From: a virus
Lineage: Duplodnaviria > Heunggongvirae > Uroviricota > Caudoviricetes
DNA: 64,000 bases
IMG/VR virus record: IMGVR_UViG_2740892119_000002
Strand: one strand, 5' to 3'
Shown: piece by piece, positions 25,946-26,944 of the stretch
How the letters are laid out: each line of letters starts with the position of its first letter
Position numbering within the stretch: the first letter of the stretch is position 1
Translations under genes and position numbers: made by a program
The notes under the pieces: model-generated
The model's input: only the letters and a program-made list of their open reading frames with translations
Databases searched by the model: none
What the model was told of the DNA's origin: nothing

Positions 25946-26944
25946 TTATCCGTTACCGCGCGACGGTTTCTGCGTGATAAACGTCTCAAGCATCTTTTCC
26001 GCAATTGCCGACCAGGTGTGACACTGGACCTTTTCAGCATTTTTCACGCGATCAACGCGAGCAATAACCTCATCCCAATCAATCCGCGACTTGATAACCA
26101 TATGGTTCACCAACTCCAGGCGATCCGGCGGAAGGCAATCGGGCGGAGTTAATATCAACGCTCCACACATTGCCGCCTCAAGAACAGTTAATCCAAGGCT
26201 TTCGGGATGCGTAACGATAAAAATGTCACTCTTACGCAATTCAGCTGCAAATTCGGTTGCTGGTACCGGAGTCCGTCTGTATGGGGTTACCGAAATATTC
26301 CCCGGCTCAATGGTAACCAATCCGTCATCGGTCAGCGTTTTGGCCTCATACGGAACGGTCAGGCGCTGAAGGTTCATAAGGATACTTAAGGAGTGATCAA
26401 ACCCACTAACATCAAATGCCGCGTGGTCTACAAAAATACGCAGAACATCGTCTGTTTTGGTTTCCAGATGGAACAGCTCCTGATTCGCTGCCCATCCAAC
26501 ATGTTTGTTAAAACGATTATGACGCTCTAACCTGCCGGGATTATCCAGGTACCGCCAGGTATCATCGCGGACAGTAAAAGTAATATCGACTGGTGCCGAA
26601 TCCAGCATAGAACCGTCATATACCTGGGCTACCCATCCAGAGAATCGGCGACACAGTTGCATGCCTATTTCCCTGGGTACCGTAGTAAAATACCTCAATC
26701 CTGGTGCCAAAATGGCCTTCGCAGAACATGCGGTCGCAGCAGTCAACACAGCTTCAACATAATCCTCCGGGCTTTCGACGCCAGGGGAATATGGACGATG
26801 GTATTGCAATGTTACCCCTGCCTCACTAAAGGCGCAGGCCAGGTTATAAGCCCACATTTCCGTATATGTTTTCACATCACTGATAGCTTCAAATTTTCGC
26901 CCAATGATCAGGATGTTCATCGGCTTTTCCTCATTCCATTGCAT
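25946..26944 (-). CDS. GT4-family (GT-B fold) glycosyltransferase-like protein (332 aa), directly downstream of ban
   Basis: E-x7-E motif ESLGLTVLEAAMCGALILTP. Confidence 0.55.
   Translation of the reverse strand: MQWNEEKPMNILIIGRKFEAISDVKTYTEMWAYNLACAFSEAGVTLQYHRPYSPGVESPEDYVEAVLTAATACSAKAILAPGLRYFTTVPREIGMQLCRRFSGWVAQVYDGSMLDSAPVDITFTVRDDTWRYLDNPGRLERHNRFNKHVGWAANQELFHLETKTDDVLRIFVDHAAFDVSGFDHSLSILMNLQRLTVPYEAKTLTDDGLVTIEPGNISVTPYRRTPVPATEFAAELRKSDIFIVTHPESLGLTVLEAAMCGALILTPPDCLPPDRLELVNHMVIKSRIDWDEVIARVDRVKNAEKVQCHTWSAIAEKMLETFITQKPSRGNG

Follow-up and report, generated by a model that had tools for sequence, protein, structure and literature searches.

The 64,000-nucleotide (nt) stretch analysed here (IMG/VR record IMGVR_UViG_2740892119_000002, referred to as the window) is from a P1-like phage of the genus Punavirus, and the gene under study is dbn ("downstream of ban"), a minus-strand open reading frame (ORF) of 332 amino acids (aa) at 25946–26944. 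A first-pass annotation made from the DNA letters had placed a 332-aa ORF directly after the helicase gene ban, and this arrangement was recovered: dbn follows ban (26944–28314, minus strand), which encodes a DnaB-type replicative helicase (Pfam DnaB_C, 3.3e-108; DnaB, 2.7e-35; P1 annotation). Nucleotide comparison of the interval 25700–28400, which holds ban, dbn, and gene 5, gave full-length matches to P1 (98.6% identity), P7 (98.8%), and 14 further P1-like records. At the protein level, Dbn was 97–98% identical to P1 Dbn, and phrog_2518, a family of unknown function in PHROGs, spanned residues 1–332 (E = 5.5e-239). By these similarities the ORF corresponds to P1 dbn and to P7 glt. The glycosyltransferase call for this gene is already public, as the GenBank P1 text reads "function unknown, possible glycosyltransferase", the P7 glt label is "putative glycosyltransferase", and the RefSeq label is "glycosyltransferase family 4 protein". 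The first-pass annotation, which had also read the gene as a glycosyltransferase, thus rediscovered an existing annotation; its reading gained a predicted GT-B fold and a conserved motif in the present analysis, but the Pfam GT4 model stayed below threshold.

Comparison of gene neighbourhoods indicated that dbn forms a single conserved phage module together with pmgO, pmgP, and pmgQ, split in the P1 lineage, and that the conserved partners of dbn are not replication genes. This is the main new result. The Dbn homologs of a lambda-like metagenomic phage (L005, 55% identity) and of another phage contig (L004, 47% identity) lie in runs of overlapping ORFs, with neighbours assigned to phrog_4603 ("alpha-2,3-sialyltransferase", MptE-like), phrog_2111 (MptE-like), and phrog_1962 ("glycosyltransferase"). 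When these neighbours were searched against the window using tblastn, three P1 genes were matched at 6–8 kb from dbn, all on the minus strand: pmgO (19349–20011; 39% identity to the L005 homolog in phrog_4603; RefSeq name "alpha-2,3-sialyltransferase"), pmgP (18825–19451; 54% to the L005 homolog in phrog_2111), and pmgQ (17453–18154; 47% to its L005 homolog). The IMG/VR scan was repeated with a distant starting sequence, the first scan having yielded P1-like contigs only. Among 12 non-P1 viral or metagenomic loci, which represent about 8 independent lineages, a PmgQ homolog lay directly 3' of the dbn homolog in 11 and at most 0.6 kb away in the twelfth. PmgO and PmgP homologs adjoined the dbn homolog in L004, L005, and a third locus, L092, where a single 421-aa ORF matched PmgO, PmgP, and PmgQ.

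The module was also found in a cultured phage. The Escherichia coli myophage vB_EcoM_IME392 (L170, 4915–7589) carries a contiguous pmgO-pmgP-dbn-pmgQ, with all four genes annotated as hypothetical. The order in P1 is pmgO-pmgP-ppp-pmgQ, the Ser/Thr phosphatase gene ppp (18151–18843) filling the slot that dbn takes in IME392, and in the P1 relatives L007 and L102 pmgO, pmgP, and pmgQ are contiguous, with no ppp. Two Serratia prophage remnants, the only loci on which the bacterial distribution of the module is based here, hold all four genes within 10–13 kb. In environmental T4-like phages from IMG/VR (L089, L090, L093, L094, and L096), a cassette flanked by uvsY and uvsW and adjacent to gp32 and uvsX comprises genes for an S-adenosylmethionine methyltransferase, a cytidylyltransferase-cupin protein, a (polysaccharide) pyruvyl transferase, a 193-aa protein of unknown function, a Dbn-like protein, and two or three PmgQ-like proteins; judged by gene content, this cassette appears to encode a glycan-building pathway. 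The carriers, namely P1, IME392, lambda-like siphophages, and marine T4-like phages, seem to be unrelated to each other. A literature search found no paper treating dbn, pmgO, pmgP, and pmgQ together.

These neighbourhoods bear on the earlier proposal that dbn is tied to replication functions through ban. The comparison did not support that proposal: adjacency to ban was restricted to the P1/P7 lineage, and dbn homologs elsewhere sat among glycosyltransferase-like genes. In P1 relatives whose Dbn is 55–58% identical, the upstream genes are two small ORFs unrelated to ban; therefore, the ban–dbn adjacency appears to be an accident of the P1/P7 lineage with little functional meaning.

The Dbn structure predicted by AlphaFold2 (predicted local distance difference test [pLDDT] score 87.6; predicted template modelling score 0.84) displayed the GT-B architecture, in which two Rossmann-like domains enclose the active site in a cleft. 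The enzymes listed for the identity of Dbn were tetrahydrobiopterin glucosyltransferase, BshA, GlgM, PimB', PimA, and glycogen synthases, and UDP-GlcNAc 2-epimerases were also among the fold-search matches. At the fold level, the predicted model supports well the assignment of Dbn as a GT-B glycosyltransferase-like enzyme. The protein is acidic (isoelectric point 5.5), and no membrane segment was found in it, the maximum 19-residue Kyte–Doolittle hydropathy being 1.55.

The peptide ESLGLTVLEAAMCG, residues 248–261 of Dbn (26162–26203, minus strand), carries the GT4-type E-x7-E motif (E248, G251, E256, A257, and G261), as assigned by family conservation, hhalign, and a partial Pfam match. A bare E-x7-E was present in 80% of Dbn shuffles and is uninformative alone; the extended GT4-type pattern E[GSA]x[GP]xxx[LIVM]EAxxxG, which was picked after the sequence had been seen, occurred in 1 of 20,000 shuffles. 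Neither E248 nor E256 varied among 16 homologs (identity as low as 39%) or in an alignment of 54 homologs (as low as 24%), and both were 99–100% conserved across 126 family members with a median identity of 29%. The first-pass annotation had made its reading depend on conservation of these two residues, and all three alignments agreed with it on this point. Moreover, E248, G251, E256, and G261 were invariant or at least 98% conserved in homologs down to about 21–24% identity, the exact GT4 spacing E-x2-G-x4-E-A-x3-G was invariant in the 54-sequence alignment, and hhalign paired E248 and E256 with E281 and E289 of E. coli WaaG. An intact dbn gene was present in all 80 P1-like viral contigs, where its 53 alleles showed a ratio of nonsynonymous to synonymous polymorphism (pN/pS) of about 0.19. 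Therefore, dbn is under purifying selection.

Among the partner proteins, PmgQ had no Pfam match. Its alignment showed an invariant D79-L-D81-T (DxD) and a C-terminal H208-G-x-P-R-P, corresponding to the metal-binding DxD and the C-terminal H-x2-G-x-(K/R)-P of GT8 enzymes, and its profile matched GT8 structures, including the Skp1 alpha-galactosyltransferase (6mw5, E = 2.3e-5) with the DxD aligned. The AlphaFold2 model of PmgQ had a pLDDT score of 94.3, and the best Foldseek matches were Skp1 alpha-galactosyltransferase, glycogenin, and LgtC (E about 1e-8). These models and alignments point to PmgQ being a GT8-like transferase with a GT-A fold. PmgO and PmgP matched the MptE-like (DUF115) Pfam model below threshold (23.4 and 21.0 bits, respectively; cut-off 34.6). 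The maximum 19-residue Kyte–Doolittle hydropathy of PmgQ, PmgP, and PmgO was 0.86–1.40, and no membrane segment was predicted in any of the three.

At the ban–dbn junction (26918–26946, minus strand), the TAA stop codon of ban (26944–26946) and the first ATG of dbn (26942–26944) share one base as TAATG (26942–26946). A second ATG, corresponding to M9 (26918–26920), lies 21 nt past the ban-overlapping start, and a Shine–Dalgarno sequence, GAGGA (26928–26932), stands seven bases before it. Distant Dbn homologs all begin at the M9 position (nt 26920). In addition, an inserted ORF of 100 aa separates ban from dbn in 8 of the 80 P1-like contigs (loci L080–L088, around 7702–8004); it starts at the ban stop and ends as an ATGA overlap exactly on the dbn M9. 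Since distant homologs start at M9 and the stop of the inserted ORF overlaps the M9 ATG, the true product of dbn is probably a 324-aa protein encoded by 25946–26920, which argues that the first eight annotated codons are not part of the protein.

The dbn gene is the last of a strand-continuous tRNA-ban block downstream of an operator for the C1 repressor. A scan of the window allowing three mismatches found 10 C1 sites against 0.29 expected. At the 3' end of dmt, the C1 consensus ATTGCTCTAATAAATTT was matched with no mismatch at 31493–31509 (minus strand) and with two mismatches at 31482–31498 (plus strand), forming a bivalent operator (31482–31509) that corresponds to the annotated Obanab of P1; the P1 record annotates Oban as controlling ban expression. 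The operator that the first-pass annotation had placed at 31493–31509 is therefore a perfect match with a partner site. The scan for terminator-like sites found none at the ban–dbn junction, and the nearest ones on the minus strand were a weak 5-bp hairpin inside ban (27972–27985) and another inside dbn (26586–26599). Between dbn and the convergent baseplate gene 5, RNA folding predicted a hairpin whose 11-bp stem is flanked by A/T runs (25899–25925; centroid −17.6 kcal/mol, z = −3.7), and 1 of 200 shuffles was equally stable. This hairpin is probably a bidirectional intrinsic terminator that ends the ban–dbn transcript. The tight junction, the missing junction terminator, the hairpin after dbn, and the perfect C1 operator all fit co-transcription of ban and dbn, and co-transcription of the tRNA genes, ban, and dbn from a C1-controlled promoter would be the natural reading of the sequence. 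This co-transcription had been stated outright by the first-pass annotation; the junction, operator, and 3' hairpin agree with it, but the argument is one from sequence. In addition, two sigma-70 promoters for dbn are predicted within ban in the P1 record, and one of them (27554–27581) was recovered in our scan.

The other half of the split module also lies behind an annotated C1 operator. The site Oppp (Op83; 20152–20168, plus strand), upstream of pmgN-pmgO-pmgP-ppp-pmgQ, is a 17-mer, CATGCACTAATTAATTT, identical to the site annotated in P1. Because it differs from the C1 consensus at four positions, it was absent from the operator scan, which was limited to three mismatches. Since both halves sit behind C1 operators (Oban and Oppp), they are expected to be derepressed together when C1 repression lifts.

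Building on the observed fold, motif conservation, purifying selection, and gene linkage, we infer an activity, donor, acceptor, co-transcription, timing, and biological role for Dbn as follows. The reading we favour, with moderate confidence, is that Dbn is a soluble, cytoplasmic, retaining GT4-like GT-B transferase in a dispensable pmgO-pmgP-dbn-pmgQ glycan module. The C-terminal Rossmann domain would bind a nucleotide-sugar donor, with E256 holding the ribose and E248 placed beside the transferred sugar, by analogy with WaaG and PimA, and the divergent N-terminal domain would bind the acceptor that receives the sugar. Rather than with the helicase, Dbn would work with PmgQ, as a metal-dependent GT8-type enzyme, PmgO, and PmgP, and the four proteins may assemble or decorate a short glycan once C1 repression lifts. 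The module would be divided in P1, where dbn stands last in the tRNA-ban block and pmgO-pmgP-ppp-pmgQ lies about 6 kb past the dbn 3' end.

The acceptor may be a host envelope glycolipid, either the lipopolysaccharide (LPS) core or an undecaprenyl-linked intermediate, which would alter the cell surface and could, for example, mask a receptor. The envelope glycolipid was placed first because GT4 and GT8 are families of the LPS core, related cassettes include a pyruvyl transferase, and a glucose-containing LPS core is required by P1; infection by P1 is blocked by galU mutation, indicating a need for the UDP-glucose-dependent core (Franklin, 1969, as cited in PMC12373910). By a rough division of the module reading, this acceptor takes a minority share and is held tentatively. 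Protein acceptors, virion proteins included, take a somewhat smaller share and were ranked second because the best matches of PmgQ act on proteins, and DNA, ranked third, is an unlikely acceptor. Early modification of the host by dbn, as put forward in the first-pass annotation, is possible. A phage-encoded change of the host surface glycan is also what the seroconverting Gtr systems (GtrA/GtrB/GtrV) bring about. However, Gtr enzymes are integral membrane proteins that use undecaprenyl-phosphate-glucose in the periplasm, whereas Dbn, PmgQ, PmgO, and PmgP have no membrane segments and different folds (GT-B for Dbn and GT-A for PmgQ).

Several observations weigh against the favoured reading, and a first group concerns the relation of Dbn to GT4 at the sequence level. 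The Pfam model PF00534 (Glycos_transf_1) scored 23.8 bits against a cut-off of 26.4, over residues 229–315 and profile positions 83–169, and among 54 Dbn relatives it was matched at E of at most 1e-3 in 12 (best E = 1.2e-5). The N-terminal GT4 domain model was matched by none of these 54 relatives, and an NCBIfam scan of Dbn returned nothing relevant. Searching the Dbn family profile against 1.84 billion proteins gave 360 cluster representatives and did not draw in the broad GT4 superfamily; among 150 listed matches, most proteins were of 280–350 aa, with some fusions of about 500–630 aa and some short fragments, and one of the proteins scanned bears a methyltransferase domain. The Dbn family thus appears to be a small, divergent, and distinct clade rather than ordinary GT4, and the database name "family 4" appears stronger than its membership by sequence warrants. 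Compared with GT4 enzymes such as WaaG, PimA/PimB', BshA, and sucrose-phosphate synthase, and with GT5 glycogen synthase, Dbn is shorter (324 aa); no sequence match links its N-terminal domain to GT4 N-domains, and in phages it is always paired with a GT8-like gene.

The donor site may differ as well. No conserved Lys or Arg was found between residues 150 and 223, where GT4 enzymes have the "GR...KG" diphosphate-binding stretch, and D173, H174, and D183 were near-invariant in the family instead of the GT4 Arg/Lys pair; R224 was about 87–90% conserved. The basic residues that bind the diphosphate are R208/K209 in WaaG and R196/K202 in PimA. Because the GT4 Arg/Lys pair has no conserved counterpart and D173, H174, and D183 are conserved, the chemistry or the donor of Dbn may differ from that of GT4. 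When PDB sequences were searched with Dbn, as a single sequence and as a profile, the matches were no more than generic Rossmann noise, such as KtrA and short-chain dehydrogenases. With hhalign against WaaG, WaaB, and a five-member E. coli GT4 alignment, just the C-terminal motif region was aligned, with low probability, so the diphosphate-binding residues of Dbn are not reliably mappable; S180 was set against WaaG K209 at only 6% probability.

The remaining contrary points come from the literature and from the transcript. A literature search found no biochemical work on any member of the Dbn family. A CRISPR interference (CRISPRi) screen of P1 found dbn, pmgO, pmgP, ppp, and pmgQ to be non-essential, and its table also lists dbn, pmgO, pmgP, and pmgQ as non-essential with reference to its citation 73, which we take to be the P1 knockout study. 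That study reports that, of its 29 single-gene knockouts, 24 affected neither plaquing nor anti-restriction; dbn, pmgO, pmgP, and pmgQ are not named in its main text, nor does any word there start with "glycos". A surface-glycan role would have been invisible in these experiments, since the laboratory strains lacked O-antigen and capsule. The main text of a study of P1vir RNA-seq in a DksA mutant does not mention dbn, ban, pmgO, or pmgQ, and in a Δhfq preprint the sole mention of dbn is "up at 20 min" in the mutant. Finally, a strong intrinsic-terminator-like hairpin (31297–31319, minus strand), consisting of GCCCATCTTCGGGTGGGC with T7 after it, is found some 180 nt downstream of Oban, within a region that P1 annotates as "dicF-like"; Rfam gave no DicF match there. 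Because this hairpin intervenes, transcription from the operator to the tRNA genes, ban, and dbn must read through it, and read-through as far as dbn is an assumption of the favoured reading.

Other explanations were weighed against the same evidence. It is possible, if rather unlikely, that the module O-glycosylates a phage structural protein, or a host or phage cytoplasmic protein, with PmgQ priming and Dbn extending. The best structural matches of PmgQ are indeed protein-directed GT8 enzymes (Skp1 alpha-galactosyltransferase, glycogenin, and GlyE), both halves of the module flank the P1 baseplate operon, all four module proteins are soluble, and MptE/DUF115 domains occur in flagellin glycosyltransferases of the Maf family. 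The phage pair is also like the primer/extender pair of glycogenin (GT8) and glycogen synthase (GT-B), as a glycogenin-like PmgQ stands next to a GT-B protein that matches glycogen/starch synthases, but this is no more than an analogy. However, GT8 and GT4 are also standard LPS-core families and co-occur in ordinary LPS core clusters (waaG/waaB with waaO/waaJ), so that the fold matches cannot tell one acceptor from another. Moreover, the paper on the P1 virion proteome mentions in its main text neither Dbn, PmgO, PmgP, or PmgQ nor any word beginning "glycos", and the knockout and CRISPRi results given above tell against this reading as well. A related reading, which we hold to be unlikely, is that the module makes a glycoconjugate not described so far, attached to an unconventional acceptor (a virion or host protein primed by PmgQ, for instance, or an RNA or DNA base), as a counter-defence or surface mask, and that Dbn may have an atypical donor site (D-H...D). 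A specific version of the first-pass reading would instead let Dbn act alone as an early LPS modifier, coupled to the replication operon, that changes the sensitivity of lysogens or infected cells to LPS-dependent phages. The need of P1 for the UDP-glucose-dependent core and the position of dbn within the C1-controlled block speak for this, but we find it doubtful: C1 represses the operon in lysogens, so that a lysogen phenotype would require internal promoters that are merely predicted; linkage to ban is not conserved beyond the P1/P7 clade; the constant partners PmgQ, PmgO, and PmgP make solo action unlikely; and Dbn has neither a membrane-anchoring segment nor a basic surface, nor a plating phenotype on K-12.

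Two further readings concern what Dbn itself does. It could be a GT-B-fold protein that is no glycosyltransferase, namely a nucleotide-sugar epimerase, a hydrolase, or a non-catalytic partner of PmgQ, and the conserved D-H...D in place of the basic diphosphate-binding residues, the UDP-GlcNAc 2-epimerases that share the fold and appear among the matches, and the sub-threshold GT4 sequence models are all in line with this. Set against them are the invariant GT4 spacing around E248 and E256 and the strong purifying selection on the catalytic-site residues, which make this reading improbable. Alternatively, Dbn could add a sugar to a modified base of phage DNA as protection from restriction, like T4 AGT/BGT or the 5-hydroxycytosine arabinosyltransferases. 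Phage DNA glycosyltransferases (T4 AGT/BGT, and those of RB69, DLP3, and HY126) share with Dbn the GT-B fold, are phage-encoded, and lie among early or DNA-metabolism genes; in P1, dbn comes after a helicase gene, in environmental T4-like phages the cassette has uvsY and uvsW on either side, and in IME392 it is near ligase and Pol X genes. A role on DNA would account for the neighbouring replication genes. HY126 makes DNA carrying arabinosylated 5-hydroxycytosine (PMC13326640), and the 9iqz protein is presumably one of the arabinosyltransferases. In contrast to these systems, no enzyme for a hydroxylated base was found, a phmmer search with E. coli ThyA as the single query detecting no ThyA-type enzyme in the 64-kb window or in 11 cassette loci (best about 5 bits); Dbn is acidic, and its partners are of the polysaccharide type, among them a polysaccharide pyruvyl transferase, an enzyme that does not act on DNA. 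Ordinary restriction enzymes routinely cleave P1 DNA, whose known modifications are methylations; this too counts against the reading, which we consider highly improbable.

Under the favoured reading of a glycan module, P1, a phage much used in genetics, carries four predicted sugar-transferase-like genes, and once dbn is grouped with pmgO, pmgP, and pmgQ, what had been four separate "unknown" genes can be tested as a single pathway. A product that modifies LPS or virions would matter for the host range of P1, its adsorption to debris, and its transduction efficiency in wild strains, and it would also help to explain the glycosyltransferase cassettes that are common in environmental T4-like phages.

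The region around the ban block held further features. A role in queuosine glycosylation of tRNA had been considered, as the operon contains tRNA-Asn and the eukaryotic QTMAN is a GT4 enzyme; it was dropped for want of support, the conserved neighbours being glycan enzymes and not tRNA genes. On the transcribed minus strand at 29888–31108, four copies of a structured repeat, in which TTCAYCACAACGGTAAGRGYACT pairs with GCCCTTACCTGTTGTG, fold as long hairpins (for example 30151–30250 and 29899–29964) around the tRNA genes, in the leader segment of the ban block, and one repeat unit holds a tRNA T-arm-like sequence, GGTTCGAATCC. No Rfam family matched this repeat, and an Rfam scan over 25800–31600 returned three tRNAs and sub-threshold matches only. 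One of the latter, at 29776–29896 (minus strand), just upstream of a gene for a 78-aa membrane protein, was to STnc100, a gammaproteobacterial small RNA (37.8 bits against a threshold of 47, E = 1e-5). Between the tRNA genes and ban, the interval 28698–29742 (minus strand) encodes an SPFH/Band7 lipoprotein (275 aa; Pfam Band_7, 1e-30) and this 78-aa membrane protein (phrog_1130), where P1 has upl, plp, and tciA/B/C instead; dbn is unaffected by this difference. Finally, the ORF of the DNA methyltransferase gene dmt (31500–34088, minus strand) extends over 862 aa from a GTG codon, compared with a coding sequence of 2265 nt (754 aa) in P1; the difference reflects either a longer allele or a start codon wrongly chosen in the ORF listing.

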